Origin: Spirochaetia bacterium
GTDB lineage: Bacteria; Spirochaetota; Spirochaetia; DSM-16054; Sediminispirochaetaceae
NCBI GenBank assembly: GCA_034520965.1
Contig: JAXHMY010000001.1
Location: 992,001 to 1,056,000, forward strand
Direction: 5' to 3'
Length of the DNA: 64,000 bases
In this document: positions 6,784 through 60,806 of the stretch, piece by piece
Numbering within the stretch: the first letter of the stretch is position 1
Layout of the letters: the number at the start of each line of letters is the position of its first letter
Notes under the pieces: model-generated
Databases searched by the model: none
Told to the model about the DNA's origin: nothing
Seen by the model: only the letters and a program-made list of their open reading frames with translations
Program-made: the position numbers and the translations under genes

Positions 6784-6804
6784 AACTTTTTTCTATACTA
6801 TCAC

Positions 6805-6945
6805 CAGCAATTCTAAATTTGGAAGTCTTCCGACTTCCAAATTTAGAATTTGCTTCATTTTCTTAGCAAAAATTGGTAGATCAATACAGTTGGAGGCATT
6901 CTCAGCTTGGATAGTGCATTGCACTATCCAAACTGAGAATTGCTG
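6805..6945. mobile_element. MITE/REPIN-like double-hairpin element, copy 1 (141 bp)
   Basis: Ends CAGCAATTCT...AGAATTGCTG; exact 9-bp direct repeat TACTATCAC at 6796-6804 and 6946-6954; two internal palindromes (GGAAGTC/GACTTCC core and GGATAGTG/CACTATCC core). Confidence 0.9.
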
Positions 6946-6970
6946 TACTATCACAGTCTGCGATTTTGAA

Positions 6971-7020
6971 CAAAAAAAATCCGCGTCCCCAATGCCTATT
7001 AGGCAAGGGTGGGCGGATTC
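6971..7020 (-). terminator. Probable intrinsic terminator of proS
   Basis: Minus strand AATCCGC...TGCCT-AAT-AGGCA...GCGGATT stem followed by a T run, about 35 bp after the proS stop. Confidence 0.7.
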
Positions 7021-7053
7021 TGTGGTTCACACGACCGAAGGGGAAGCCGGCGG

Positions 7054-8482
7054 TTAATACGCTTTTGAGAAGATGGCCCGGTACTGGGCCGGTTCACCGC
7101 AGCGCACACATTTTTTTCCGCTTACCCCATCCTGGTCAAAGGGCAGCACCCGGATGGTGGCCTTGGTATCGTTTTTTACAGCCGCTTCACACTCCACCGA
7201 GCCGCACCAGTGGGTATCGACAAAGCCGTTGCCCTCTTTGTACAGCGCCTTGAACTCATCGTAGTTCTGCAGCTGATGGGTGTTCTCTGCGCGCAGCTCA
7301 AGGGCACGCTGATACAAATCCTTCTGAATCTGTTCCAGCAGCTCTCCCACCCGCTCAGAAGCAGCTTCAATGGCAACCGACTCTTTTTCTCCGGTGTCCC
7401 GACGCACCAGCATGGCTTTGCCGTTTTCCATATCCCGGGGGCCTATCTCTATCCGTACCGGGACACCCCGCATTTCCCACTCGGCAAACTTCCAGCCCGG
7501 GGAATTGGCCTCGTCGTCATCCAAGACTACCTTGTAGCGCCCCTTCATCTGCTGATACAGCTTGTCGGCGTACTCCAGTACCTCGGTTTTGTTTTTGTTT
7601 TTGAAAATCGGTATGAGCACCGCCTCGGTGGGTGCCAGTCGCGGCGGCACCACCAGCCCGCGGTCATCGGAATGGGTCATAATCAGGGCCCCGACCAGCC
7701 GGGTGGAAACGCCCCACGAGCTAGCCCAGACATGGTCGAGCTTTCCCTCTTTGGTCTGAAAGGTTACATCGAAGGCTTTGGCAAAATTCTGGCCCAGGAA
7801 GTGGGAGGTACCCGCCTGCAGGGCACGGCGGTCCTGCATCATCGCTTCGATGGAATAGGTATTTACGGCGCCGGCAAATTTCTCGGTCTCCGTTTTACGG
7901 CCGGTTAACACCGGTACGGCCATATACTCTTCTACAAAACTGCGGTACACCTCCAGCATTTTGAGGGTTTCCTCCTCCGCCTCTTCCTTTGTCTCATGAG
8001 CGGTATGTCCCTCCTGCCAAAGGAACTCACTGGTGCGCAGAAACAGGCGGGTGCGCTTTTCCCAGCGCAGTACATTGGCCCACTGGTTTATCAGCAGGGG
8101 CAGATCGCGGTACGACTGTATCCACTTCTTGTACATGCTCCAGATGATGGTCTCGGAGGTGGGACGGATAACCAGAGGCTCTTCAAGCTCGTCTCCGCCG
8201 GCATGGGTTACCACCGCCAGCTCCGGAGAGAAGCCCTCGACGTGTTCGGCCTCTTTATGGATAAAACTTTCGGGTATCAACAGGGGAAAATAAGCGTTGC
8301 TGTGACCGGTTTCCTTAAACATAGTATCGAGTTGGCTCTGAATGGCTTCCCACAGGGCGTAACCGCGGGGCCGGATCACCATACAGCCCTTTACTGGGGA
8401 GTAGTCGGCCAGTTTTGCCTGGACTACAATATCAACATACCATTTGGAATAGTCTTCGCTGCGGGGTAATTTTTTCCGCCAT
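7054..8482 (-). CDS. proS: Prolyl-tRNA synthetase, archaeal/eukaryote-like type (frameshift at codon 7-8)
   Basis: [41 protein letters not shown]-terminal ..KAY. The frame extends upstream as [27 protein letters not shown], but the start MAEKITP at 8482 is out of frame. Confidence 0.96.
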
Positions 8483-8535
8483 ACATACCTCTAGTATTGA
8501 ATCTTATTATTTCTTGGAGAACAAATTGCCTGGGT

Positions 8536-8564
8536 ATTGTACTAAGGAGCGGCGGGATGGTCAA
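8536..8564 (-). promoter_or_regulatory. sigma70 promoter of proS
   Basis: TTGACC-17 nt-TACAAT on the minus strand. Confidence 0.7.
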
Positions 8565-8588
8565 TGCAGGCGGCGGACTACTTTACCA

Positions 8589-8711
8589 CAGGAATTTGAA
8601 TTTTGGAAGTCTTTTGACTTCCAAAATTAGAATAACCTCAAACCCTTTAAGATAAATTACTTATTCTAAAGAAGATGTGAGCATTCTAAATTTGAAAATT
8701 TAGAATCGCCT
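8589..8711. mobile_element. Degenerate copy of the double-hairpin MITE
   Basis: CAGGAATT..TTTTGGAAGTC-TTTT-GACTTCCAAAA hairpin, related spacer, collapsed second hairpin ATTCTAAATTT-G-AAAATTTAGAATCGC; flanks ACTTTACCA / ACTTCACAA match 7 of 9. Confidence 0.75.
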
Positions 8712-9405
8712 ACTTCACAAGAGTGGTGGTTTCAACCATGTAACGGATATTTTTACCCTGTTCCGACCAGAGTTCTTTCTCCATCACCACTACCAATCCG
8801 CTTTCAGCCGGAGAGAAAAAGACTTCCTGCATGCGATAGGAGATTACACCGTCACGGCGGTAATCCGGAAGGCCGAGGGTATAGGTACGGGTAGAACCGC
8901 CCTTGCTGGTTACTGCAAGGTTTATATGAAAAGAGGCGCTTACATCGCGGTCCGAGCCGAAATTCTGCTGTACCAGGGTAAGTACGTATGAGTTTCCCCT
9001 ATAAAAGTCTCGGAATTCGATTCTCTTTTTAGGCTTGTCACCGTCAACATGTACATATACCAGGCGGCCGGTTTTCAGATGATCAACTGAATACTCTGAA
9101 ACCTGCGGTTCAACCTGGTGCAGCAGATTAAAGAGGGCCCCAAAACCGTCCTGCCCCGGTTGTACCTCGTCGGTAAAAACCTTTTTTGTCACTCCGTCGG
9201 GAACAAAGGCGTTCTTATGAACATTCACCGTATAAATTTCTGCATAGGGGCGTTCTTCACCATCTATAACCCCGTATTGGCCGAACATAAACACCGAGGA
9301 GTCTTCAGAAAACCCCAGATTCACAAAGGTCGCCACATCGCCGGCGGCCAGGGGTACTAAAACTGATAAAATCAAAGCTCCAATCAGAATCACTCGTTTT
9401 TGCAT
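8710..9405 (-). CDS. Predicted secreted protein, DUF2259-like (spirochaete type)
   Basis: Signal peptide followed by GDVATFVNLGFSxD..FMFGQYG; C-terminal IRYMVET. Confidence 0.75.
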   Translation of the reverse strand: MQKRVILIGALILSVLVPLAAGDVATFVNLGFSEDSSVFMFGQYGVIDGEERPYAEIYTVNVHKNAFVPDGVTKKVFTDEVQPGQDGFGALFNLLHQVEPQVSEYSVDHLKTGRLVYVHVDGDKPKKRIEFRDFYRGNSYVLTLVQQNFGSDRDVSASFHINLAVTSKGGSTRTYTLGLPDYRRDGVISYRMQEVFFSPAESGLVVVMEKELWSEQGKNIRYMVETTTLVK

Positions 9406-9498
9406 TTGTCCGTCCTCCTCTTTGTATATCGTACAAAAAGCCCGACGACTGTAGATGTTTATATTGATTTTTACGCACAGGATTCGTACAGTGGGGTC

Positions 9499-10305
9499 AT
9501 GACCCGTAAGGTACGAAAACGTTTTTTAATTGGGGCTACCGCCTCAGCACAGTTAGTAGTTATTGTGCATATAGCAGTTATACTTATTCTGTTTCTATTT
9601 TCCCGAGGTCTCGAGACTCTGGACAAGCAGCAGCTTACTGTTCATGAGGGAAATACAGAACTGTTAATAGCTATTCTGGCACTACAGGCAGCCGCCGCGG
9701 CGGGAGCCCAGTTGGGCTTGTACCTTTTTTTCCGTAAAACTCCCTCGCCGGAGGTGTTCTTTTTTCAATTTGCCCTATTGGGCTTCGCCTTCTCTAGCCT
9801 CAGGGTACTGGCCATCCCTATGTCGTACTACCTCACTTCTCTTTTCTCATTTATGCCGCTCACCAAGTTTGTGTTTTTCGGCCGTCTTTTCGCAGTGATG
9901 TGCCTTTTCCTTTCGGGATTATTCTCTACCGGGCTCACCTTCCAGAAACAGGGCTCGTATTTGGCAGGGGCTTTTCTTATTTCGGCGGTAATTTCAATCA
10001 GCCTGCCTGTAGACTGCACAAGCTTCTCCCTGCCCCTAATCTGTAATATTGGTAACGCCATTGATTTTTCACTTGTTATTTATGTGCTGGCTGTTTTCTC
10101 TGTACTTAATTATATATATGCCGCAGGCTTGCACTCTAGCCGTGAATACAGCTTTAACGCCGTCGCAGTTCTGACTGTGATTACCGGAATGCAGTTGGTG
10201 TACTATTTTGCCCATTCCATGATTGGTGTGGTGGGTTTAGTGCTGGTTATTTTCGGAACCTTTATTTTTGCCCACCGTACTCACACCATTTACTTGTGGT
10301 TCTAA
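9499..10305 (+). CDS. Hypothetical polytopic membrane protein
   Basis: Multiple hydrophobic segments. Start moved to ATG 9499, which lies 6 nt after TTGATT-17-TACAGT. Confidence 0.75.
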   Translation: MTRKVRKRFLIGATASAQLVVIVHIAVILILFLFSRGLETLDKQQLTVHEGNTELLIAILALQAAAAAGAQLGLYLFFRKTPSPEVFFFQFALLGFAFSSLRVLAIPMSYYLTSLFSFMPLTKFVFFGRLFAVMCLFLSGLFSTGLTFQKQGSYLAGAFLISAVISISLPVDCTSFSLPLICNIGNAIDFSLVIYVLAVFSVLNYIYAAGLHSSREYSFNAVAVLTVITGMQLVYYFAHSMIGVVGLVLVIFGTFIFAHRTHTIYLWF

Positions 10306-10913
10306 ATCATAAACATATAACTTAGTAAGCCAACCCCTACCGGCAGTATTATATTGTCTAAATCTTTTGACGGAATCATTTCCAGCAGAGTCGCTGCAAA
10401 TGCAACCGTCAACGCAGTGGAGAGAGTCGGCAGCGGGCCGAGGGCCAGCAAGAACACTACCAAGAAACAGGCAAGGCTTCCGGCCACAGTTTTACCACCG
10501 CTCAGGGGAATACGAACGCGCCCGATGCTTTTGCCGATTAAACTGGAAAGGCCGTCTCCAAAAGCCAAGGCATAAATTGCCAGGCTGGCCGCCGGTTCGG
10601 GATACAACATCAGTGCCAGCATGGCACCCATGGCCAAAGTAATCGGCCCAAAAACGAGTCCGTTCATATCTCTGCTGCGGGAGGCGCTCATTGTGATAAA
10701 CGACACCACCCCTATTTGTCGCCCCTCAAGCCGCTCCAGCTCCGCCCAGGTATAGAAAAGCACCCCGCTTCCCAGCATGAGTAAAGTTATCTGAAGGTTC
10801 AACGCGGCTAAGGGAGGTACCAATGCGATCAGCATATGGATCGATTTTCTGATTACTTCCGTTGTTAATTCCTGCTGCCGGCTTGTACTAACTGTGTTTA
10901 ATATTGAGCTCAT
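10302..10913 (-). CDS. Dolichol/phytol kinase-like or cytidylyltransferase-family membrane protein
   Basis: EVIRKSIH, LAFGDGLSSLIGKSIG, GKTVAGS, LDNIILP motifs. Confidence 0.85.
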   Translation of the reverse strand: MSSILNTVSTSRQQELTTEVIRKSIHMLIALVPPLAALNLQITLLMLGSGVLFYTWAELERLEGRQIGVVSFITMSASRSRDMNGLVFGPITLAMGAMLALMLYPEPAASLAIYALAFGDGLSSLIGKSIGRVRIPLSGGKTVAGSLACFLVVFLLALGPLPTLSTALTVAFAATLLEMIPSKDLDNIILPVGVGLLSYMFMI

Positions 10914-10962
10914 ATATATCCTGTATTTCTTGATTATTTCGTATCTGCATTACTCTTAAACA

Positions 10963-10978
10963 TGCAAGATGCATGCCA
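10963..10978 (-). promoter_or_regulatory. sigma54 (-24/-12) promoter
   Basis: Minus strand TGGCATGCATCTTGCA matches TGGCAC-N5-TTGCW with exact GG/GC spacing, ~50 bp upstream of the 10913 start, with AT-rich DNA further upstream. Confidence 0.75.
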
Positions 10979-11242
10979 AACATCGAAACTAATGGTTTTT
11001 GTTAATATACTGTTTGGGTGTAGTAATTTAAGTGCAGCTAAGAATAATAGGTATTTTAGGGTAGAAGCAAAAGTGCAGTTTTTTATACAGTTTTATTCAC
11101 AAATTACTACTCTTTCAGGTGGAAATTACAAATGCTGCAGGATTTGCTGAACCTAGAACTCTTTAAAATAGATGGACTCTGTCTACAATATACATCCCGA
11201 GGCCGAATAAATCAACAGGACCTCAGGGATTTCAGTAATTAG

Positions 11243-11632
11243 TCACTCCAGTGATTGAATGTCCGTTTCCGGGAAGTCGCTGCCCTTGTAGAGGAGAGGC
11301 TCTTCCTTCGCAGTTGCGAGGGCGTACGAAAAACAATCCCCATAGTTGAGACCCGCCGCATGTCGACCTTTACCGAAGCGTCGGTATGCATCGAGCGCAA
11401 TTTCCGCCTGCTCCAAGTCCACCTGATCTATCTGAATTTCCGCACGACTCACAAAGAGTATAAGTTGATGTGTACCAGTACTTCCAAAACGAGATTCCAA
11501 TACAATTCCAGCCTCAACATACGTTGCGGCGGACATTCTACGTATCGGAGCGTCCACAATAAAACGGATGAATGTGTCACGTTCGGGCTCGTTTTGCAAA
11601 ACCGCAAGAACAGCTGAGGTATCTATGACCAT
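11243..11632 (-). CDS. vapC: VapC PIN-domain toxin
   Basis: MVIDTSAVLAVL, GKGRHAAGLNYGDCFSYALA, LLYKGSDF. Confidence 0.95.
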   Translation of the reverse strand: MVIDTSAVLAVLQNEPERDTFIRFIVDAPIRRMSAATYVEAGIVLESRFGSTGTHQLILFVSRAEIQIDQVDLEQAEIALDAYRRFGKGRHAAGLNYGDCFSYALATAKEEPLLYKGSDFPETDIQSLE

Positions 11633-11891
11633 TACTCTGCGATCCCCCTCTCATCGTAGCCGAGAATTTCATCTGCACTGCGTTTGTCGTGGACCGGAAG
11701 GGCTGCGGTGAATTTGGCGATATCCTGCAGTTCTTTAAAAGAGCGTTCCGATTACGCAATTTCCGTGTTTTTCTGCGCTCGACCGCATCCTGGAGGGCAG
11801 CTGTAACGGCATTGGTAATCGAAGTATTGGTGAGCTCGGCAAGTTCCTTTGCCAGCGCATGCGTCCGTTCATTTTTAATATTCAACGGCAC
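11632..11891 (-). CDS. vapB: VapB antitoxin (1-nt frameshift near 11734)
   Basis: LNIKNERTHALAKELA...AVTAAL. Restoring one A gives ELQDIAK...RSADEILGYDERGIAE*, whose stop overlaps the vapC ATG (TAATG). Confidence 0.88.
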
Positions 11892-12023
11892 ACTTTTTCT
11901 CCATCAGAGGCTCCTCCATTAAATTTCCTCCATTAAAGCAATTTTTCTTCCTTCTTTAATATACCATAAAAATGGGGCTCTGTGAAGAAACAATTCAGTG
12001 AAATCTACATTTGGAATTGCTGC

Positions 12024-12908
12024 CTACCCAGCTTTGCACACCAGCATAATGTCGCCGACTTCACTGCCGCTGTGGCGGGCTATTACTTTGCACTTGGTCT
12101 TAAAGAGAAAATACAGCCCGCGATCGACCTCCGACAGGGTCTCATAGTTGCCCTGGCCCTTGCTTATCACCACATCCGCCGAATCAAAGAGTCTCGTAAA
12201 TTCAGCGCTGCACATCGACAGGATAGTCCCGGGGGCCTCACTTCCGCTGGAAATCACCGGAACCAGTTCGGTAAGCCCGATCGCCTCGGCATCTTCCAGG
12301 GTGGCGTCGTTGATAATCGGTGCATGGCGCACGGCCACGCTCATTTTGAGCTGGGGGAAGTCCGCACGCAGCTGCTCAATCAGGAGCATGTCAAAGACAA
12401 TTTCGCCGGCATTATCGGCTATGAACAGCAGGGTATCTGCCCCGGCCAGATCCGCCTTCAGGGCCGGCAGGGCAAAGTTCTCGGGGGCCTCGGCGCCTAT
12501 TCTCGACTCCTCGTCGGCCACCAGCTGCTGCATGGTGTGGGTGATGTCTAAATCGGTGGAGACCCCCAGGTCGATACTGTTACCGGCAATCGCAAACTCG
12601 ACGGCGGTGCGCAGGGGCTGGGCGCTGCGGGCAATCAGGCGCCGTACCTCCGGGGCGGCCTCCAGGGCCATACGGTTGCTCTGCTGCTTTTCCCCCGCAA
12701 AGGGGTCCGACTCACCAGTTATTTCACGAATCATGCGGTTGATCTGCAGAGACATCTGCGGAGGGCTCGCATCCGATGGAAAACCGGGCAGCATTTCCGC
12801 CACCCGGTTCAACACCTCCCGCTGTTGGGACTCATCCAGACCGTTACGCCGGGCAATACCCAAGCCGTGGTCCATGAAACAGGAAAAGCAGTCTAAAAAG
12901 GTACGCAT
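12024..12908 (-). CDS. ARMT1-like / DUF89 damage-control phosphatase
   Basis: DCFSC, DPF..EK..SN, AIAGNSID, ADNAGEIVFD, PIINDAT, ISKGQGNYE. Confidence 0.93.
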   Translation of the reverse strand: MRTFLDCFSCFMDHGLGIARRNGLDESQQREVLNRVAEMLPGFPSDASPPQMSLQINRMIREITGESDPFAGEKQQSNRMALEAAPEVRRLIARSAQPLRTAVEFAIAGNSIDLGVSTDLDITHTMQQLVADEESRIGAEAPENFALPALKADLAGADTLLFIADNAGEIVFDMLLIEQLRADFPQLKMSVAVRHAPIINDATLEDAEAIGLTELVPVISSGSEAPGTILSMCSAEFTRLFDSADVVISKGQGNYETLSEVDRGLYFLFKTKCKVIARHSGSEVGDIMLVCKAG

Positions 12909-12920
12909 AATATCCGCCGC

Positions 12921-13763
12921 CTATTCCGCGGCGGGAATACCGTTCTTTTCGATATTCTTCAGGGTGTTATCGACAATTGCCTGAAGTGCGGTGGATGAGG
13001 CACTCTGGGGCTTATCGGTAATATAGTGAGTACCCTTGTCCTCGGCCTCCATTAGGGCCTGGTCCAGGGGAATCGCGCCTAAGAAGGGAACCTCCATCTC
13101 CTCTGCCGCCCGCTTGCCCCCGTCTTTCCCAAAGAGGGGGATCTCCTTGCCGCAGTGGGGACACAGCAGCCCGCTCATGTTCTCCACCACGCCCAGCACG
13201 GGTACCTTAAGCTGCTTGGAAAAGTTGACGCTCTTGCGCGAATCGAGTATGGCCACCTGCTGCGGGGTGGTGACGATAATGCTTCCATCGAGTTCCGGTA
13301 TAAGCTGGGCAACCGTCAGGGGCTCGTCGCCGGTTCCGGGGGGAGAGTCTATTACCAGGTAATCCAGGCTGCCCCAGTTTACATCGGCCAGAAACTGCTT
13401 GATCACCCCGATCTTCAGGGGGCCGCGCCAGATTACAGGGGTATCCGGGCCGTGGCCGGCCATCGACAGGCTGACTACCTTGAGGTTTTTATTCACCTCG
13501 AAGGGCTCAATTCCCTCATCGGAGGACAACAGCTGTGCGTTGTCGGCACCCAGCATTTTAGCCACATTGGGGCCGTGCAGGTCGGTATCCATCAAGCCGA
13601 CCTTAAAGCCCTTATCCGCCAGGCTTAAGGCTATATTTACAGAGACGGTGGTTTTACCGACTCCACCCTTTCCGCTCAGTACCAGGATTTTATGGGTAAT
13701 TCCGGCCATCCGCTCTTTTAAGCGGGCATCCTGGGCCTCTCTCTCTTCCTTCTGATCCGCCAT
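12921..13763 (-). CDS. mrp: Mrp/NBP35 Fe-S carrier ATPase
   Basis: SGKGGVGKT, VIWRGP, DYLVIDSPPGTGD, VVENMS..CPHC. Confidence 0.94.
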   Translation of the reverse strand: MADQKEEREAQDARLKERMAGITHKILVLSGKGGVGKTTVSVNIALSLADKGFKVGLMDTDLHGPNVAKMLGADNAQLLSSDEGIEPFEVNKNLKVVSLSMAGHGPDTPVIWRGPLKIGVIKQFLADVNWGSLDYLVIDSPPGTGDEPLTVAQLIPELDGSIIVTTPQQVAILDSRKSVNFSKQLKVPVLGVVENMSGLLCPHCGKEIPLFGKDGGKRAAEEMEVPFLGAIPLDQALMEAEDKGTHYITDKPQSASSTALQAIVDNTLKNIEKNGIPAAE

Positions 13764-13784
13764 TTCTCGTTCCTTCCTTTGGAC

Positions 13785-14647
13785 TTACACTTCCGTTATT
13801 TTTTCCCACACGCTCTTCAGCCGATCGGAAATATCATCATCAAAACTACATGCGTAGGGTTTTAAATCCGCCACCGAATCAACTATCCGTTTGTCGTAGG
13901 GAACATCTCCAAGATACCGAATTTTTTTCTCTTCGGCAAATGTGCGCAGCTCTTCGGCCACCTGCGGGTTAATCGTACTCTTATTGATCACCATTCCCAC
14001 GGGAATTCCGAAATGCATGGCCACATCGATCACCCGTTTTACATCGTGCACCCCGGCGGTGGTCGGTTCGGTCACCAGTACCACCATATCCACACCGGTC
14101 ATGGCAGACATCACCGCGCAGCCGGTCCCCGGAGGACCGTCAATCACGACCCAGTCGCTTCCCTGCTGCTCACCGGTACTGCGGGCATTCGAACGAACCA
14201 GCTGCACCAGCTTTCCGGAGTTTCCTCGCCGGCGAAGAGCTGGGCGTGAACCATCGGCCCGAATTTGGTGTCCGACTCAAACCACCGGCCGGCATCGCTG
14301 GTGCGAAAACTGAAGGCTTCGGTGGGACATACCAGCCCGCAGACCCCGCAGCCCTCGCAGGCCACCGAATCTACCACTGCCACTCCGTCCTTCATGCTCA
14401 GGGCGTCGAAGCGGCAGTGCTCTACGCAGATACCGCAGCCGGTGCAGGCGCTCTGGTTCAGCTCGGCCACCCGGCCGCCCTTGAACTCGTGGGTCTCTTT
14501 GACCTCCGGGGCCAGCAGCAGATGCAGGTTGGCCGCATCTACATCGCAGTCGGCAAAGACCGCATTCTGCGCCAGGCAGGCCAGGGAGGCGGAGACAAAG
14601 GTTTTACCGGTGCCCCCCTTTCCGCTGAGAATCACTATCTGTTTCAT
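13785..14647 (-). CDS. MinD/ParA-type P-loop ATPase with 2x[4Fe-4S] insert (1-nt frameshift near 14221)
   Basis: SGKGGTGKT, DCDVDAANL, two CxxCxxC..CP/CR motifs. Restoring one A gives GEENSGKLV and joins the two track ORFs (DGPPGTGC, VTEPT). Confidence 0.9.
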
Positions 14648-15543
14648 GGTTTTTGGCCCTCCTCGGCTACAAGTGCCTCGATCCGGCTGTACATCTCCTG
14701 AAAGTGGCGGCGGAAGTCCGGGTCGGCGGCTACAATACTCTCGCCGCGGGCGTAAAATTCGGCGATCTCCCGGCTGTAGGGAATCCGCATCAGCACCGGC
14801 AGGTTCTTCTTGCGGCAGAACTCCTCCACATCGCTGCGGCCGATGTCGGCCCGGTTTATTACCACCCCCATGGGCATATCCAGATCGCTGAGCACCTGTA
14901 CCGCCAGCTCAAGGTCGTGCAGGCCGAAGGGGGTGTTTTCCGTGACCAGGAGGCTGAAATCCGAATCCTTTACCGCCGTCACCATGGGGCAGGTGGTTCC
15001 CGGGGGCGAGTCGATTATTACCGGGGGGCCCCCCGAAGCTTCTGTGCCCCCCGGGCCCTCCGAAGCAGATCCGCCGATCTGCCGCTTTACCGCACGGATC
15101 AGGGGCGGGGCCAGCACCTCGCCGCTGTTCAGGTCGCCGTACAGCAGGTCTACCCCCGGCACCCGGGCCGAGACCAGTTTTCCGATGGGCCACGGCACCT
15201 CGGTGATTGCATCCTCGGGGCAGACAATTTTGCAGCCCCCGCAGCCGTGACACAAATTGTCAAACACCAGCAGCTTGTCTTTCAGACGGGCCAGGGCGTT
15301 GTATTCGCAAAAGGAGCTGCACAAGCCGCAGGCCGTGCATTTGTCATCGTCGATCCGGGGCACGAGAATCGAAAAATCCTCGCTGCTCCGTGACTCCGGC
15401 CCGAGCTGCAGAAACAGGTGGCTGTTTGGCTCCTCTACATCACAGTCGAGCAGCTGCACCTGCTGCTCCAGGGCCAGGGCCAGTCCCACAGCTACTGTGG
15501 TCTTGCCGGTGCCCCCCTTTCCGCTTGCGACCGAAATAGTCAT
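14644..15543 (-). CDS. MinD/ParA-type P-loop ATPase with 2x[4Fe-4S] insert
   Basis: ASGKGGTGKTT, DCDVEEPN, CTACGLC..C, CHGCGGC..VCP, DSPPGTTCP, TPFGLHDL. Confidence 0.92.
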   Translation of the reverse strand: MTISVASGKGGTGKTTVAVGLALALEQQVQLLDCDVEEPNSHLFLQLGPESRSSEDFSILVPRIDDDKCTACGLCSSFCEYNALARLKDKLLVFDNLCHGCGGCKIVCPEDAITEVPWPIGKLVSARVPGVDLLYGDLNSGEVLAPPLIRAVKRQIGGSASEGPGGTEASGGPPVIIDSPPGTTCPMVTAVKDSDFSLLVTENTPFGLHDLELAVQVLSDLDMPMGVVINRADIGRSDVEEFCRKKNLPVLMRIPYSREIAEFYARGESIVAADPDFRRHFQEMYSRIEALVAEEGQKP

Positions 15544-15555
15544 ACCCGGCCGGCC

Positions 15556-15915
15556 TTACGCGTGTCGGGCGGGACCGGTGGGTCCGCCGGTTTTCTCGAA
15601 TTCCCCAGCCAAAAAGGCCTGTACCGCCGACTCGACCGTGCCCTCGGCATTGGGATACACCTCGATACCCGCGGCGTTCAAGGTTTTGAAGGCGTTGGGC
15701 CCTACCTGCCCGGTCAGCACCGCCCCTACCTCTTGCTCGGCCATGTACTGGCTGGTCTGTACGCCAACCCCGCCGACTCCCGCAGCAAACTCGTTTGGCT
15801 CGAAACGGTAGTCACCGCTCTCGGTATCGTAAAAACAAAAATGGGCGCAGCGGCCGAATCGCGGATCGACATTCGAAGCGCGGTCCTCACCCTGGGAAGT
15901 TATACATATTTTCAT
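15556..15915 (-). CDS. NifB/NifX-family (orange-protein-like) cofactor-binding protein
   Basis: VDPRFGRC, GGVGVQ, VLTGQVGPNAF. Confidence 0.9.
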   Translation of the reverse strand: MKICITSQGEDRASNVDPRFGRCAHFCFYDTESGDYRFEPNEFAAGVGGVGVQTSQYMAEQEVGAVLTGQVGPNAFKTLNAAGIEVYPNAEGTVESAVQAFLAGEFEKTGGPTGPARHA

Positions 15916-16010
15916 GAAGGTCTCCTCGGTATTTGGTATTTTAAAAATGCAATCATAGTAGCGCGCTGGCCCCGACGGAAGCTCCAGCGGGGCTGCGCGA
16001 GAAACTCAGG

Positions 16011-16415
16011 CTAATGTCCGCCGCAGTCACCGTGGCCGTGCTGGTACCCGTGCTCACCGCCGTGACTGCCGTCGCCATGGCCTTCGCCGTGGGCGCAGAG
16101 GCTCTCGCCCCCCTCAAGGGTGCCGGCCAGGCAGGAGTTCAGTACCTCGTCCACAGTGCCGGTTACCCCGACTATCTGCTCGATATCCATCTGCTGAAAC
16201 AGCTGCTGAGCCCGCTGGCCCATTCCGCCGGCAATAATTACGTTCACCCCGTGATCATGAAGCAGGCGCGGGATGCGCCCCGGCTCATGGCCGGGGTTTT
16301 CAAGTTCGCTTCGCTGCTCGACGCTTCCGTCAACCAGATCAATCAAAGTATAAAGGGGGCAGCGCCCGAAGTGCGCTGCCACATGGCCGGCTTCTGTTGC
16401 AATTGCAATACGCAT
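16011..16415 (-). CDS. NifB/NifX-family protein with His/Gly-rich C-terminal tail
   Basis: VAAHFGRC, NPGHEPG, IIAGGMGQRA; tail HGEGHGDGSHGGEHGYQHGHGDCGGH. Start placed at ATG 16415. Confidence 0.9.
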   Translation of the reverse strand: MRIAIATEAGHVAAHFGRCPLYTLIDLVDGSVEQRSELENPGHEPGRIPRLLHDHGVNVIIAGGMGQRAQQLFQQMDIEQIVGVTGTVDEVLNSCLAGTLEGGESLCAHGEGHGDGSHGGEHGYQHGHGDCGGH

Positions 16416-16416
16416 A

Positions 16417-16776
16417 CTACTCTCCCTGCTTCTCGGTGTGAATGGCTTCCATTTCACGCTTCAAGAACTCCATACGCTCCTCGAGGGCGGCCATCTCATC
16501 TTCTAATAGGGCCTTGCGGTTTTCCGGGGCACGGGGTGCCTCCGGCCGGTTCCAGGCCATGCCTCGGCCACCCATTCCGCCGGCAAAGCCGCCGCCGTAG
16601 CCTCTGGCCATTCCGCGGCCGAAACCGCCGTGGGCGCGTCCGCCGCCCCAGGCCATTCCCCGACCGGGTCCCGGTGCGCTTGCATATCCGGGTGCCTCGT
16701 TTCCTGCGCAATATCCGAATGCGCGTCCTGTCATTGGTCCCATTCCGTTGGGTCCTGTTCTATCTCCTCGTGGCAT
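16417..16776 (-). CDS. DUF5320-family Gly/Arg-rich protein
   Basis: MPRGDRTGPNGMGPMTGRAFGYCAG N-terminus, GRG-rich middle, C-terminal coiled coil. Confidence 0.88.
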   Translation of the reverse strand: MPRGDRTGPNGMGPMTGRAFGYCAGNEAPGYASAPGPGRGMAWGGGRAHGGFGRGMARGYGGGFAGGMGGRGMAWNRPEAPRAPENRKALLEDEMAALEERMEFLKREMEAIHTEKQGE

Positions 16777-16805
16777 AATTATACCTCCTTGGGATTTTAT
16801 CCCAG

Positions 16806-17378
16806 CTAATGTGTTGTAGTTTGATTACACTCACGGCATACGCCGTAGAGCTGCAGTACATTCTGCTGCACCGTAAAGCCTTGGTCGGCCTTTACCAGCT
16901 CTTCAAGCTGGTCCAGCAGTTTGTGCTGCTCCTGGGGAATTTCGTTTACGGGAAAGCTTCGCCGGCAGTTACTGCAAATGAGTACCTCCCGCCGACGGCG
17001 CTCGTCCTGCTCGGCCAGCTTATAGCGGGCCTTGCCTTCGCCGGTATCTATCCGGTGGACCATCCCTATTTCAGCCAGCAGCTGCAGGGTGCGGTACACG
17101 GTTGCCAGGCCGATCCCCGGATGACGCTGGTGCACCTGCAGATACACATCGTCGGCACTCAGGTACTCATCGGACTGTTCCAGAATCTCCAGGATAATCT
17201 GCCGCGGTACGGTCAGACGGAGTCCGCGTCCTCTGAAAGGACCTCCCCCGCCATGGCCGCCCCGACAGCCCGGGCCAAAGCCCCCGCCGCGACCTCTGCC
17301 CCGGCCTCCTGGGCCTCCGCGGCCCGGTCCAAAACCGCCGCCGTCACCGGGTACGCTGTTTTCATCTTCTATTCCCAT
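16806..17378 (-). CDS. Fur-family transcriptional regulator (atypical)
   Basis: RLTxPRQIILE, IGLATVYRTLQLL, two CxxC motifs; Gly/Arg-rich N-terminal extension. Start placed at ATG 17378 after AAGGA. Confidence 0.88.
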   Translation of the reverse strand: MGIEDENSVPGDGGGFGPGRGGPGGRGRGRGGGFGPGCRGGHGGGGPFRGRGLRLTVPRQIILEILEQSDEYLSADDVYLQVHQRHPGIGLATVYRTLQLLAEIGMVHRIDTGEGKARYKLAEQDERRRREVLICSNCRRSFPVNEIPQEQHKLLDQLEELVKADQGFTVQQNVLQLYGVCRECNQTTTH

Positions 17379-17394
17379 GCAGCTCATTCCTTTT

Positions 17395-17443
17395 TGATAA
17401 TCATTCTCATTAACAATATACACCCACTCAGCCAAACCGTCAA
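17395..17443 (-). promoter_or_regulatory. sigma70 promoter with downstream Fur box
   Basis: TTGACG(17443-17438)-17 nt-TATATT(17420-17415). TGATAAT-C-ATTCTCA at 17395-17409 differs by 1 nt from the 7-1-7 Fur box TGATAAT-N-ATTATCA. Confidence 0.8.
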
Positions 17444-17520
17444 GGGCTAATAAAAAGAAACAAAGAGCAAAAGCGAGGCGAACTTCCCATACCCTTTAAA
17501 AGCGGATATACTCGGTGGCC

Positions 17521-18780
17521 ATGAGCGTACCCATTATTGTAAAAATTCTCGTTTCGCTGGCGCTGATCCTGGTGGGAAATAAGCTGTTTCACAACCTTTC
17601 GGCGGCGGTGGCTCTAGGAACCTTGGTGCTGGCGGTATGGTCGGGCCACGGCCCCGCCGAAATTGCCGGGATTGCCGCCGACCGCTTTTTAAGCCTGGAT
17701 AACGGACTGCTGCTTTTGGTGGTGATTCTGGTGATCTGGCTCTCGAGCCAGATGGACAGTACCGGTATTATGCGGGATTTGGTGGGCAGCCTGCGCGCCT
17801 TTCTCTCGCCCCGCAGTTCAATGGCGGTACTGCCGGCGGTGATCGGCCTGCTGCCGATGCCCGGGGGAGCCCTGTTCTCCGCGCCCCTGGTAGACGACTG
17901 CGATGAGAAGGAGGAGGTTCCGGCGCTGCTGAAATCGCAGATCAACTACTGGTTCCGCCACGTGTGGGAGCTGACCTGGCCCCTGTATCCGGGGGTTATT
18001 CTGGCCACCGACATTGCGGGGCTGCAGGTGTGGCATGTGTTTCTGGTGGGAATTCCGATGATGGCTACCTCGATTGGGGCGGGCTACTTTTTTATTCTGC
18101 GCAAAGCCCGCATCGGCGCCGGCCACACCACCCCCTCGCAGCACCGCTTTCTGCACCTGATGCTGCCGATTTTTACGGTAATCGGAGTCTACATTTTTAT
18201 CATGATCTTCTTTCCCGCGGTGTCGGAGGTGAGTAACTATCTGCCGATGCTGATAGGCATTGCCGCCGCGATTCTGGCGGTGCAGTTTAAACGGCCCCTG
18301 GGATGGGCCGAATGGAGGGGTATTTTTTTCAGCCGCCGGGCCCTGAATATGGGCATCATCGTGGCGCTTATTCGCATTTACGGGGCCTTTATCGAGACCC
18401 GTCTGCCCGGCGGGACCATGCTGATGGAGCAGATGCGAATGGAACTGAATACCCTGGGCATTCCCCTGATACTGCTGCTAATGCTGATGCCCTTTATCAG
18501 CGGCATGACCACCGGTATTTCGGTGGGTTTTGTCGGGGCCAGTTTGCCGATTGCTTTTTCGCTGCTGAGCCCGGATGCGGGGCTGGCCGAGCGGCTGGGC
18601 ACGCTGATGCTTACCTACCCCTTCGGCTTTATCGGGGTGATGCTCTCGCCGGTGCACGTCTGTTTTATCGTCACCAGCGAGCACTTCAAAACCAGCCTGG
18701 TAAAGAGTATGGGCCGGCTGCTGGCACCCTCGGCGGTGGTACTGGCCGTCTCCTTTGCAATCGGACTGCTGCTGTTGTAA
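17521..18780 (+). CDS. DUF401-family membrane protein (putative transporter)
   Basis: PAVIGLLPMPGGALFSAPLV, INYWFRHVWE..WPLYPG, LSPVHVCF. Confidence 0.85.
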   Translation: MSVPIIVKILVSLALILVGNKLFHNLSAAVALGTLVLAVWSGHGPAEIAGIAADRFLSLDNGLLLLVVILVIWLSSQMDSTGIMRDLVGSLRAFLSPRSSMAVLPAVIGLLPMPGGALFSAPLVDDCDEKEEVPALLKSQINYWFRHVWELTWPLYPGVILATDIAGLQVWHVFLVGIPMMATSIGAGYFFILRKARIGAGHTTPSQHRFLHLMLPIFTVIGVYIFIMIFFPAVSEVSNYLPMLIGIAAAILAVQFKRPLGWAEWRGIFFSRRALNMGIIVALIRIYGAFIETRLPGGTMLMEQMRMELNTLGIPLILLLMLMPFISGMTTGISVGFVGASLPIAFSLLSPDAGLAERLGTLMLTYPFGFIGVMLSPVHVCFIVTSEHFKTSLVKSMGRLLAPSAVVLAVSFAIGLLLL

Positions 18781-18808
18781 ATTGTTAGAGTAAAGAGGGA
18801 GGGGGAAT

Positions 18809-19237
18809 ATGCACAACAAAAAACCGAACGGCGACGCCAACGACACCGAGATGATTCAGGACCTAAAGGAGAAGCGGGAGGATATCCTAAGAGAGATTCA
18901 GGAGTACAACCAGGAGCGGGAGCAGATAAAATCGATGCTGGGCAGTGTGGGTGGAGAGAGGTACTCGAAAACCGACAAGATTATCAATATTTTCTTTGTG
19001 CTGCTGATCATCGGGTTTATCATTCTGGAAATAACCACCGACTTTCTCCCGCCCTACATTTCTCTGGAAATAGGGGTGCTGCTGGTCTCGATTAAGATTA
19101 TCTGGATGATCCACTCGCAGCACAAGTTCAACCACTTTCAGTTCTGGATTCTCAACTCTTTGGAGTTTCGGATGAACAATATGTATTCGCGAATCAAGAA
19201 GATTGAACGGATGCTTAGCTCGCAGGACGAGAAATAG
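18809..19237 (+). CDS. Hypothetical protein (coiled coil plus 2 TM helices)
   Basis: GGAGG RBS; clean ORF with two hydrophobic segments and NHFQFWILNSLEFR. Confidence 0.8.
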   Translation: MHNKKPNGDANDTEMIQDLKEKREDILREIQEYNQEREQIKSMLGSVGGERYSKTDKIINIFFVLLIIGFIILEITTDFLPPYISLEIGVLLVSIKIIWMIHSQHKFNHFQFWILNSLEFRMNNMYSRIKKIERMLSSQDEK

Positions 19238-19260
19238 CCGACTGCAACTAAATGCAGCCG

Positions 19261-19402
19261 CAGCAATTCTCATTTTGGATAGTGTAATTACACTATCCAA
19301 AATGAGAATGCCTCCAAAAGTTAAGATATATAAAAATTTGCAAAGAATTTGATGCGAATTCTCAATTTGGAAGTCAGAAGACTTCCAAATTGAGAATCGC
19401 TG
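19261..19402. mobile_element. MITE/REPIN-like double-hairpin element, copy 2 (142 bp, opposite orientation to copy 1)
   Basis: Ends CAGCAATTCT...AGAATCGCTG; exact 9-bp direct repeat ATGCAGCCG at 19252-19260 and 19403-19411; perfect 44-bp palindrome at 19266-19309 plus a hairpin with 18-bp arms. Confidence 0.92.
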
Positions 19403-19481
19403 ATGCAGCCGGCTCTGTAAGATGCCGAGGGGGCGGAAAGCCTGCCCGTGGGCGGGCCGCTGCCCCTGAACACTTGGGCGC

Positions 19482-31124: not shown

Positions 31125-31496
31125 CTACAGAATCGAAATATTATATTTTGGAATTATAGTATCCTTTGTAATTAGTGTAAGGCCTTCTACCTGCGCTTGT
31201 GCGATTAACAATCGGTCGAAAGGATCACGATGGATATCAGGAAGTGCTCCTACTTGATATGCATGGTCATGAGTGATGGGTAGTTGAATGAATGGTTCCT
31301 GATACGCTTTTTCATACCAGTTCTTAGGAATTGATAGTTTTCCCAGGCCGGTTTTTATTGTGATTTCCCATATAACCACTGCACTAAGGTAAACATCATT
31401 ATGCGGATGTGCGATTTCTACTCTCAAATGCTCATCCAAAAGATCCGAATCATCCATCCACCACAAGAAAGCGTGGGTATCTAAAAGCAGTCTCAT
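31125..31496 (-). CDS. vapC: VapC/PIN-domain toxin
   Basis: LLLDTHAFLW, SAVVIWEITIK, HRDPFDRLLIAQA. Confidence 0.94.
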   Translation of the reverse strand: MRLLLDTHAFLWWMDDSDLLDEHLRVEIAHPHNDVYLSAVVIWEITIKTGLGKLSIPKNWYEKAYQEPFIQLPITHDHAYQVGALPDIHRDPFDRLLIAQAQVEGLTLITKDTIIPKYNISIL

Positions 31497-31742: not shown

Positions 31743-31820
31743 GTAACCTCCATATTGCAGAACAGACTAGACCAGGTCAGACCATATTAATACTATGCAA
31801 AAAAATCGCTGTAGTCAAGA

Positions 31821-31947
31821 CGCGGCCTCCAAACGTTGAGTTATCTAAAAATTTGCAAAAAAATTGATGCGAATTCTACATTTGGAAGACTTTTGACTTC
31901 CAAATGTAGAATCGCTGTAGTCAAGACAGCTATTCTCAGAATTGCTG
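31821..31947. mobile_element. Internally deleted MITE copy plus adjacent collapsed mini-copy
   Basis: Spacer and hairpin ATTCTACATTTGGAAG...CTTCCAAATGTAGAATCGCTG ending at 31917, flanked by TAGTCAAGA (31812-31820 and 31918-31926), followed by CAGCTATTCT-C-AGAATTGCTG (31927-31947). Confidence 0.82.
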
Positions 31948-41780: not shown

Positions 41781-42602
41781 TTACAAGCGGTGGCGCTCCA
41801 TCCAATGAACCGCAAAATCGACACACAGGCGCTGACGAAACAGGCGGGCGGTTCCCGCACCTACCTTCCCTTTGACTATGTCGTGGGAGTGCTTTTTTTC
41901 AAACCCATGACCGATCGTTTCGAAATCCTCCGAGTTAATATTTATATCCTTGAACCATTTCCAGCGCCGGTGGCCCTCCACCATGATCGGAGCCCCGGTA
42001 TCTACTTCCTTTTTTTTCGGAAAAGCGGCCCGGTACTCCGCCAGATGAAAGGAGGTATTGCTCTGGTAACCGGCCCCCAACAGCAGCACGTATCCGTCAC
42101 GGCTGTAGAGCCTGCCGAGGGGCGAGGTATCGCCCAAAGCAAAATCCGGCGGATGCTCACATAGCAGCTCCTGGGCCCCCTCGCCCCAGGCGGAAAAGGA
42201 GAGCTGCGGGTGGGCACTGCGCAGAACCCCCGGATATGTCCTGAACAGCTCCGCCACCAGCCCGATACCGCGGGTCGGAGTCAGTTCCGGGTCATACGCA
42301 GGCATTGAAGCTCGAATAGTCTCCCACCACCCCTTCGGCACCGGCGGGTTCTGCCAGCCCGCCGGATCGGAGACATCCCCGGAGTGGGCCGGCATCATCA
42401 GGGTTCCCCACGGGCGGATCACTGCTTGCAGTGCCTCGATAAGAGCACGGGCACCGCCGCACACCCAGCCAAGGGAGGAAAGGGAGGAGTGCACCAGCAA
42501 GGTACTCCCCGGTTCAATTCCAAGCTCCATGAAATCGGCCTCCAAACCGGCCTGGGTAACCGGTCTGTCACCGGTACGGTCTATCAACTCTTTTTCGCCC
42601 AT
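41781..42602 (-). CDS. AAC(3)/YokD-family N-acetyltransferase
   Basis: LLVHSSLSSLGWVCGG, GTLMMP, RSAHPQLSF, NTSFHLAE. Start ATG 42602. Confidence 0.9.
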   Translation of the reverse strand: MGEKELIDRTGDRPVTQAGLEADFMELGIEPGSTLLVHSSLSSLGWVCGGARALIEALQAVIRPWGTLMMPAHSGDVSDPAGWQNPPVPKGWWETIRASMPAYDPELTPTRGIGLVAELFRTYPGVLRSAHPQLSFSAWGEGAQELLCEHPPDFALGDTSPLGRLYSRDGYVLLLGAGYQSNTSFHLAEYRAAFPKKKEVDTGAPIMVEGHRRWKWFKDININSEDFETIGHGFEKKHSHDIVKGKVGAGTARLFRQRLCVDFAVHWMERHRL

Positions 42603-42692
42603 AGTTAAAGCATAACACATTTCAAATTGCTGTGCCGGCAATTATTCCTGTACTCACTTGCCTAAGCGGCTAAAGATAACTAATTTAGTAAT

Positions 42693-55275: not shown

Positions 55276-55323
55276 CTACAGCAAAGTGTACGCAGAGTAA
55301 AGACACAGGTCAATAGTGGTTAA

Positions 55324-56592
55324 TGGTTCAAACCATGGGGGATGCAATTTTTCACACGCCCCGTGCGAGTAAGGGCGATTACATCCACACATATTTGGGC
55401 CAGTACATCCCGTCGAACTTATCCAGGGTTCCGGTCATCCGAGCCCACACCATCAGTTGCGACCAGTTGAGCTTTACATGGGTGTAGAACTTGCGCATGG
55501 TAAAGATACCCCGCAGCCCTCTCGCGATTTTACCCCGAGGCACCCCGGCCACCTCGGCATGGGAGAAGTTCTGAAGAAATGGATCTCCGATGCGAAAAGG
55601 CTTAAAATAATTCTGATACAGCTGGTAGACGGCCATGCGCTCAAGACAGTTATTCACATTCTGAGAGAAACGCACCGTCTCGCGCACATGATTTGCATTA
55701 TCCTTCCTGAATTGCCTGTCCAGATAGTTGACAGAAAAAAGTGGATTGTCAATGGTGCGTTCGAGCTGTGAAGAGATTCTCACATGCTCAAACCTCCCCT
55801 CACTTTTTAGGCTCTGCAGCACATCCGAGCCCATGACCAATCTTTGATACTCTAACTTCTCATCGCTGTAGAGGCAGGTAAACCACCGCTTCTGCGCGTA
55901 TTGTTCGACCAGATCGACAATCTGCAGGAAAGACTGACTGATGGATATCCTCTTGCGGATGTAGTGCCTCTCCCGCTGGTCACGCTCGTCCTTCTGCAGC
56001 TCGGTCATCTTTCCCTTGCGCCGCAAATGGGCATAGTCGAAGGTGATAAAGAACTGTGAACGCTTGCCGGCCAGGATGTGAATGTTATTCGGCTGGTACT
56101 GATCGCTGACAAAGCTCTCGAACCCGTCGGTGACCAGATCCTCACAGGGAACATAGTCCTGCAGGACATCGGCCTGCAGCGCAATGGCCTGACGGGCGAG
56201 ACGGCCTAAGCGGTTGATGATCGCCTGGTGGCTGACCTCCATTATACGGGCGGTTTTACGCACTCCTCCGCAGTTGGTCATATGATCGAAAATCACCTGA
56301 TAGTCGAGCTTTCTCTTTACATAATAATCCAGGCGAAAGGTTTGCTCACTGAAACCTCCTCCGCAGCCGAGGCATTTGAAGCGGGTGACCGTCCCATGGG
56401 CCAGGGTCTCGTAGCTGCCATTGATGTGGTACCAGCGCCCATGGTCTGGGGGCTTTGTGTGATATTCACATTCGGGATGGGGACAAAATGGGGGGATAAG
56501 CATTGGCAGGCCTCCTCTAAAATAAAGTGTGGGTACACTCTAATAGAGAGGCTAAGTCGCCTCCCTGCTTCAATTCCCCATGGTTTGAACCA
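55324..56592. mobile_element. Insertion sequence (IS1-like), 1269 bp
   Basis: Perfect 17-bp terminal inverted repeats TGGTTCAAACCATGGGG (55324-55340 and 56576-56592), flanked on both sides by TTAA; one transposase-like ORF fills the element. Confidence 0.9.
55379..56503 (-). CDS. IS1-like transposase (Zn finger, HTH, RNase H-fold catalytic domain)
   Basis: CPxxxC...RFKCLGC, HTH (VRKTARIMEVSHQAI), LVTDGFE, LYSDEK, and VNYLDRQFR...RETVRFS aligning by eye with the IS1 ERxNxxxR...RKxxxFSK region. Confidence 0.8.
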   Translation of the reverse strand: MLIPPFCPHPECEYHTKPPDHGRWYHINGSYETLAHGTVTRFKCLGCGGGFSEQTFRLDYYVKRKLDYQVIFDHMTNCGGVRKTARIMEVSHQAIINRLGRLARQAIALQADVLQDYVPCEDLVTDGFESFVSDQYQPNNIHILAGKRSQFFITFDYAHLRRKGKMTELQKDERDQRERHYIRKRISISQSFLQIVDLVEQYAQKRWFTCLYSDEKLEYQRLVMGSDVLQSLKSEGRFEHVRISSQLERTIDNPLFSVNYLDRQFRKDNANHVRETVRFSQNVNNCLERMAVYQLYQNYFKPFRIGDPFLQNFSHAEVAGVPRGKIARGLRGIFTMRKFYTHVKLNWSQLMVWARMTGTLDKFDGMYWPKYVWM

Positions 56593-56649
56593 TTAATTAA
56601 CTTGACAAATGAGGCGAAACCTAGAAAATAAAGAATTAGAGAGGTTCAA

Positions 56650-60769: not shown

Positions 60770-60806
60770 GGATAGTGCAATGCACTATTCAAACTGAGGA
60801 GTGCTG
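60770..60806. mobile_element. Truncated fragment of the double-hairpin MITE
   Basis: GGATAGTGCAATGCACTATTCAAACTGAGGAGTGCTG matches the last 37 bp of copy 1 (6909-6945) with few mismatches. Confidence 0.78.

Follow-up and report, generated by a model that had tools for sequence, protein, structure and literature searches.

A double-hairpin MITE family in a Spirochaetia bacterium, with ISNCY-clan ends and stems likely maintained by template switching

The elements at the locus and the family they belong to

The window analysed here, a 64,000-nucleotide stretch (C1:992001-1056000) of the 3.35-Mb, nine-contig genome of a Spirochaetia bacterium, holds two complete copies and five damaged traces of a short palindromic element of the MITE kind (miniature inverted-repeat transposable element), whose positions are collected in Table 1. 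Copy 1 has a citrate lyase ligase gene on one side and proS on the other, and copy 2 sits between convergent genes. A first-pass annotation made from the sequence alone had described both complete elements of 141-142 bp, each within a different 9-bp duplication, together with the five damaged traces, and all of these were found again at the same coordinates. Its account of two palindromes around a spacer of about 45 bp stood as to the palindromes, the spacer being revised to 48 bp, and its ends beginning with CAGC hold in the window copies but not throughout the relatives, where the first base is variable and GAG or TAG replaces CAG at one end. When folded, each complete copy forms a pair of long hairpins (z = -10.9 to -12.6; none of 200 shuffles did as well), copy 1 having one stem mismatch, at 6906, and a check of the window against Rfam returned no family at gathering score. 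In what follows, G000 denotes the source genome, other G numbers its relatives, X numbers sequencing runs and L numbers loci.

Table 1. Positions of the MITE copies and of other features in the window
Feature	Position	Strand	Remarks
Target duplication, left, copy 1	6796..6804		TACTATCAC; site single-copy in G002:C70
Complete copy 1, subfamily A, 141 bp	6805..6945	+
Copy 1 hairpin 1	arms 6810-6827/6832-6849
Copy 1 spacer	6850-6897
Copy 1 hairpin 2	arms 6898-6918/6920-6940
Target duplication, right, copy 1	6946..6954		TACTATCAC
Subfamily C copy, 123 bp	8589..8711	+	hairpin-2 core deleted; flanks decayed
One-end remnant	12001..12022	+	rarer subfamily with stems reading TTCTACATTTGGAAT
Target duplication, left, copy 2	19252..19260		ATGCAGCCG
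Complete copy 2, subfamily B, 142 bp	19261..19402	-
Target duplication, right, copy 2	19403..19411		ATGCAGCCG
Subfamily B copy, 97 bp (31821-31917), plus flanks	31812..31926	-	hairpin 2 lost; flanks TAGTCAAGA at 31812-31820 and 31918-31926
Collapsed 21-bp piece	31927..31947		two tips of the element; tandem to the preceding 97-bp copy
Decayed remnant, subfamily A type	60770..60806	+	hairpin 2 and right end
PIN-domain genes	11243-11891 and 31125-31496		one with Rv0623-like partner; likely VapBC-type toxin-antitoxin pairs
Aminoglycoside 3-N-acetyltransferase family gene	41781-42641		PF02522, in an environmental spirochaete; no MITE copy adjoining
Insertion sequence, 1.28 kb	55319-56600		open reading frame 55379-56503, minus strand

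A genome-wide BLAST search seeded with 16 copies returned 86 loci in the source genome, 40 of which carry a CAG...CTG pair at 135-146 bp. Among these 40 full-length copies, 32 are flanked by exact 9-bp duplications, four by duplications with one mismatch and one by a duplication with two, one further copy having a 10-bp duplication and two not being resolved by the script. The 53 full-length copies found in seven relatives comprise 31 with exact 9-bp duplications, nine with one or two mismatches, four shifted by one base, six without a duplication and three with a cut flank. The target preference seen in 33 sites is weak and favours pyrimidine at position 4 and purine at position 6. Alignment of 51 near-full copies separated subfamilies A, B and C and a rarer fourth type, which have hairpin 1 in common and differ in the spacer and the hairpin-2 core; subfamilies whose spacers differ keep the same element length of 141-142 bp, as do eight genomes, and overlap with a called gene exceeds 30 bp in none of the 51 copies. 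In G008 (L183-L195) and G005 (L217-L222), near-identical copies starting with GAG or TAG at one end form bursts that look recent, and since these copies keep exact 9-bp duplications, the first base is tolerated at that end.

Of 9 genomes from the same genus, 7 carry the element; elsewhere in the family it occurs in 2 of 7 genomes and, outside the family, in 1 of 24. Among the matches listed, other records with the same double hairpin or a 50-bp form belong to Spirochaetaceae or Sediminispirochaeta; they may overlap genomes already examined and are not counted separately. Both complete copies have empty sites in relatives: the site of copy 1 is empty in G002:C70, with a single copy of the target, and at copy 2 a run X9 contig passes over 151 bases, equal to the element plus one duplication. 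Additionally, the 123-bp copy is missing from contigs of runs X9 and X18, the latter an RNA run whose contigs serve as evidence for the empty site only and have no bearing on transcription; run X1 is possibly from the same sample as the source and is not independent. Short, non-coding and multicopy, with terminal inverted repeats, target duplications, empty sites and ends shared with an insertion sequence (IS), the element is a real, mobile, non-autonomous MITE family, as the first-pass annotation had proposed from its DDE-type 9-bp duplications.

Terminal repeats shared with the ISNCY clan

The outer 19 bases of the MITE are the terminal repeat of a widespread IS clan annotated ISNCY. An exact scan with this 19-base end over genome contigs of many phyla, in which some matches are chance ones inside genes, gave at least 118 stretches; 20 among those listed have a matching far end 50-320 bp away together with a 9-bp duplication with at most one mismatch, and outside the spirochaetes the interiors of these short elements are unrelated to that of the spirochaete MITE. 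A transposase of about 440-460 amino acids adjoins the end at three loci among the matches listed. The end motif is found on 1.4-1.9-kb elements whose protein matches the RefSeq 'ISNCY family transposase', an annotation also carried by plasmid relatives of the transposase, and the longer, transposase-enclosing elements with the same ends that had been proposed as a search target were thus found. Examination of 22 transposase loci identified 13 with paired ends 1.4-1.9 kb apart, comprising eight (three of them in a single genome) with exact 9-bp duplications, one with a 10-bp duplication, three with none and one cut.

Homologues of the transposase are numerous (5231 of 8000 candidates at E <= 1e-30), and no Pfam or NCBIfam model rose above its cut-off in the scans run; IS4-family NCBIfam models gave weak matches in 37 of 79 members, with a best score of 19 bits against a cut-off of 152 for member 1. 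Residues D130, D219 and E343 are invariant across the 79 homologues. Tn5 transposase is the top match to the predicted structure (pLDDT 89.5; E 4e-9, TM about 0.5), and a sequence search of PDB returned nothing below E 0.35. The enzyme is accordingly modelled here as a Tn5-like protein with a predicted DDE triad and RNase H-like fold, and the assignment of the MITE's partner to a Tn5-like ISNCY clan is well supported.

Within the class, 22 of 251 genomes have a transposase match. The sole match in the source genome belongs to an element at C1:856108-857804, 136 kb before the window, which supports the statement that the mobiliser lies outside the window. This resident element has a 9-bp duplication and worn ends, the first base of the end being changed, and was detected by protein search; its transposase is 44% identical to the Nostoc punctiforme protein WP_234711115.1 over 325 amino acids. 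An intact element in G016 (L151), with an open 440-amino-acid frame, has the closest ends and fits subfamilies A, B and C better than the resident one. The partner is identified in this way at the level of the clan.

Several side observations concern the same clan. The resident element lies within a cassette array (L149:11109-12805), with cassette-site repeats directly after it. In G003, L157:1392-2047 is a 656-bp stretch with an end on either side, where the end of a subfamily C MITE adjoins a broken ISNCY transposase that has a left end of its own. Same-ended MITEs in Chloroflexota, Cyanobacteria, Poribacteria and others (L031, L052, L057, L063, L131, L145) hold unrelated palindromes, and several of their interiors resemble repetitive extragenic palindromic (REP) sequences by eye.

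Other multi-copy elements were considered as mobilisers and rejected on their ends, namely the 1.28-kb family with a copy in the window, a 1.29-kb CTGTCCC-ended family, IS21-like and IS66-like elements, two DDE_Tnp_1 elements, IS110 elements and a group II intron; family names in the first group of these elements were assigned by eye from translations. The 1.28-kb IS, present in at least 10 copies, has inverted GGTTCAAACCATGG ends with TTAA-like tips and a 374-amino-acid protein that has no Pfam match at 1e-3 and scores weakly against IS1 (29.6 bits, the cut-off being 100). The 1.29-kb family has five copies, CTGTCCCGAAGC ends and a similar-looking protein. An IS110-family element inserts 7 bases inside the MITE end, at the same base, in two source-genome copies and in G036, and a third source-genome IS110 copy occupies a similar non-MITE site (G000 C2:70606-72241, C9:264427-266078 and C3:264233-265738; L011:778-818 onward).

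Hairpin architecture, paired changes and their interpretation

Each hairpin consists of the terminal repeat and a local copy of it, inverted and running inward from base 6. There is a one-base indel at the inner tip, and a complete inner end is present at arm 2 in 0 of 104 copies and at arm 3 in 1 of 104. Terminal pairing amounts to 13.4-13.5 of 14 pairs in the MITE, against 5-10 in transposase-bearing IS, and a scan of 114 ends found an 18-21-bp inner arm other than the far end only in L034, L083 and L123, all of the MITE family. The Nostoc punctiforme element (both ends) and L051 (one end) have 7-bp palindromes, likewise from base 6. Deletions at the hairpins yield forms of 123, 97, 50-54 and 21 bp. 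The 50-54-bp forms are rare and retain either hairpin with mixed ends, as deletion between direct-repeat half-sites predicts; both chimera types expected from in-place deletion occur, and the forms are not supported as mobile units. The 123-bp form in the window recurs at C1:372185-372307, so that either it moved as such or the identical slip happened twice. Between 31804 and 31947, an end remnant, the 97-bp copy and the 21-bp piece stand in tandem with the same 9-mer between each.

Stem changes were analysed in a pool of 104 copies from eight genomes, in which 203 of 208 hairpins were parsed and the 189 with at most two mismatches were kept. Out of 14 positions, an arm mismatches its partner in the same hairpin at 0.2 and the arm of another copy at 1.5-2.2. 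The half-sites within one hairpin differ at 0.11-0.15 of 12 bases and the two ends of an element at 1.9, the ends being identical in 4 of 87 copies; the matching is therefore local and does not serve end symmetry. Among 28 nearest-neighbour pairs, there are 10 paired events and, by a strict rule, three loop inversions, whereas independent mutation gives 0.31 paired events, or 0.97 with changes confined to hotspots. Copy 2 illustrates such an event, since a single paired A-T/T-A change is its sole difference from the copy at C1:103548. Loops occur in both orientations: reverse-complement pairs number 16, where 5000 null draws have a mean of 4.1 and reach 11 at most, and a reversed-loop control gave 0 pairs. 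Stem mismatches comprise 11 G-T, 16 A-C and 12 others. Multi-base compensation and loop inversion are described as signs of template switching in the portion of PMC8794818 consulted, and in the present pool the loop inversions, the absence of a G-U bias and the unmatched element ends together point to template switching in DNA.

The account judged highly probable is that a 141-142-bp MITE with ISNCY-clan ends is likely mobilised in trans by a Tn5-like DDE transposase, and that its hairpins are likely kept by template switching; it builds on direct observation of copy number, 9-bp duplications, empty sites, transposase-shared ends, paired changes, inverted loops and broken inner tips. The transposase would bind the outer 19 bases of each end, its staggered cut giving the 9-bp duplication as in Tn5, and selection likely acts on the outer repeat as the transposase site. 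Each hairpin would have arisen by local inverted copying of the terminal repeat from base 6 inward, after which a nascent strand switching template between the arms would copy a mutation to both or erase it from both, sometimes flipping the loop. It is proposed that the inner arms appear conserved because selection acts on the outer arms, from which they are copied, and that the 142-mer moves as a unit because the one-base indel at the inner tip keeps that tip from being cut; the 21- to 123-bp forms would be slippage deletions at the hairpins.

A number of points weigh against this account. Mobilisation and template switching are both deduced from sequence. An in-frame stop, either real or an assembly error, precedes the catalytic Glu of the resident transposase, and the ends of the resident element are closest to the rare fourth subfamily, with A, B and C a poorer fit; furthermore, the queries used found no transposase in the MITE-rich genomes G002, G005, G006, G007 and G008, which are 68-94% complete. 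On the side of the hairpins, the exclusion of 14 of the 203 parsed hairpins (those with more than two mismatches) favours perfection in the counts, a complement-only loop control gave seven pairs, five of them also true inversions, and the copies are related by descent, so the nulls overstate significance. Single stem changes, at 27, outnumber the 10 paired events in the 28 pairs, and repair would thus be partial.

Among other explanations, it is unlikely that the hairpins of the same ISNCY-ended MITE serve transposition, as extra transposase sites or as cruciforms whose build is selected at each jump. The constancy of length described above, the persistence of hairpins although deletions are common and the 7-bp palindromes of the Nostoc punctiforme element and L051 would suit that idea, but transposase-bearing elements do without long terminal hairpins, the 18-21-bp inner arms are confined to the MITE family, and conversion alone accounts for inner-arm conservation. 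It is quite unlikely that the doubled ends form a working device (a cruciform or second transposase site) that betters the parent IS and that, in addition, the 50-bp hairpins with their own 9-bp duplications are mobile; such units, if real, would be far shorter than a Tn5-like enzyme should manage to loop, and functional inner half-sites or 50-bp forms would change the view of the smallest DDE transposase substrate.

The first-pass annotation had left the paired changes to either selection on the structure or arm-to-arm conversion. Its observation of stem-preserving changes is upheld by the paired events above, and the loop inversions, local matching and lack of a G-U bias bear out conversion as their source. 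That the stems act as RNA, as terminators or mRNA-stabilising hairpins with compensatory substitutions, is very unlikely. The folds are very stable on both strands, many pair types occur at stem positions 10, 11, 13, 15, 17 and 18, and base-pair compensation is reported for bcr1 in Bacillus in the section of PMC3184786 available; yet G-U is not preferred on the reference strand, as the mismatch counts indicate, many swaps are transversions without a wobble intermediate, loops invert, and the window matched nothing in Rfam. Position argues the same way: with 3307 genes called by us, divergent genes flank 23 of 51 copies, where length predicts 24% (P = 7e-4), tandem genes flank 23 and convergent genes 5, orientations are 13 against 10 with no strand bias, and neither convergent nor 3' positions are favoured. 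Hardly credible is a REP/REPIN-type element spread by an HUH enzyme, the REP-associated tyrosine transposase (RAYT), or a hybrid of this with a DDE system, the combination suggested by the annotation. The paired palindromes are of REPIN-like size and the genome has one Y1_Tnp gene, but no inverted repeats accompany that sole gene in 2.2 kb and no MITE copy lies close to it, every half-site is an IS terminal repeat, the 9-bp duplications match those of ISNCY elements, and the copies are scattered singly and have empty sites. The palindrome foot in the 51-copy alignment shows neither a GTAG nor a CGTC tag, and with hairpins built from an IS repeat and the RAYT-like gene unlinked, the combined reading was given up.

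With template switching preferred, what is unusual about the element is its doubled, self-repairing ends, for which a known DNA mechanism gives the best explanation, and it is otherwise an ordinary IS-derived MITE. It ties a MITE family to a Tn5-like clan with more than 5000 homologues and no curated model above cut-off, a clan that would seed MITEs in many phyla. The occurrence of strong base-pair covariation together with DNA-level signatures is a warning for RNA-structure scans, and the hairpins offer a ready reporter for template-switch rates.

Relation to known mobile elements

The literature searched yielded no description of the double-hairpin build, subscription journals being thinly covered, and only unrelated matches for the 12-base end motif. 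Many MITEs in Sediminispirochaeta are noted in the part consulted of PMC11602168, which surveys 183,232 genomes and whose supplement may list this family unnamed.

The closest known relatives are the RefSeq ISNCY-annotated IS represented by WP_234711115.1 (Nostoc punctiforme pNPUN02) and WP_212661733.1 (Acaryochloris), whose repeat, like that of the MITE, starts with CAGCAATT and which share the 9-bp (once 10-bp) duplication; the MITE differs in having no gene and in carrying at each end the 18-21-bp inverted copy missing from the full elements. The ISMae2 subgroup has CAG ends and 9-bp duplications as well and is a candidate label for the partner IS. In the portion of PMC11448079 consulted, this subgroup appears by name only. 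Cyanobacterial MITEs with the same end (L052, L057, L065, L134) are 122-132 bp long and have interiors unrelated to that of the spirochaete MITE.

Tn5/IS50 has 19-bp ends and a 9-bp duplication, and its transposase (PDB 4dm0, 1mus) is the best structural match to the ISNCY transposase model, at 11-13% identity and a TM of about 0.5. The Nezha MITE makes a 10-bp duplication. Found in Anabaena and Nostoc with ISNpu3 as partner, it resembles the spirochaete MITE in its size of 130-170 bp, stable folds and empty and filled sites, and shares its terminal repeats with an N. punctiforme IS; it is likened here by description from part of PMC3184786. Chunjie of Geobacter uraniireducens is similar in its A+T-rich sequence, 21-bp terminal repeats, 9-bp duplications and stable folds and differs in its greater length of 178-235 bp, again by description, from parts of PMC3184786 and PMC10969869. 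REP/REPIN elements with RAYT, as described in the part of PMC3733652 consulted, are likewise small intergenic palindromes targeted by IS110-family elements, and the MITE departs from them in having target duplications and neither a GTAG or CGTC tag nor a link to RAYT. Finally, template-switch mutation at hairpins produces instant paired changes, multi-base compensation and loop inversion like those of the MITE and is described for RNA genes and human DNA (PMC8794818; see also PMC5453318), whereas the present case concerns the ends of a bacterial mobile repeat.

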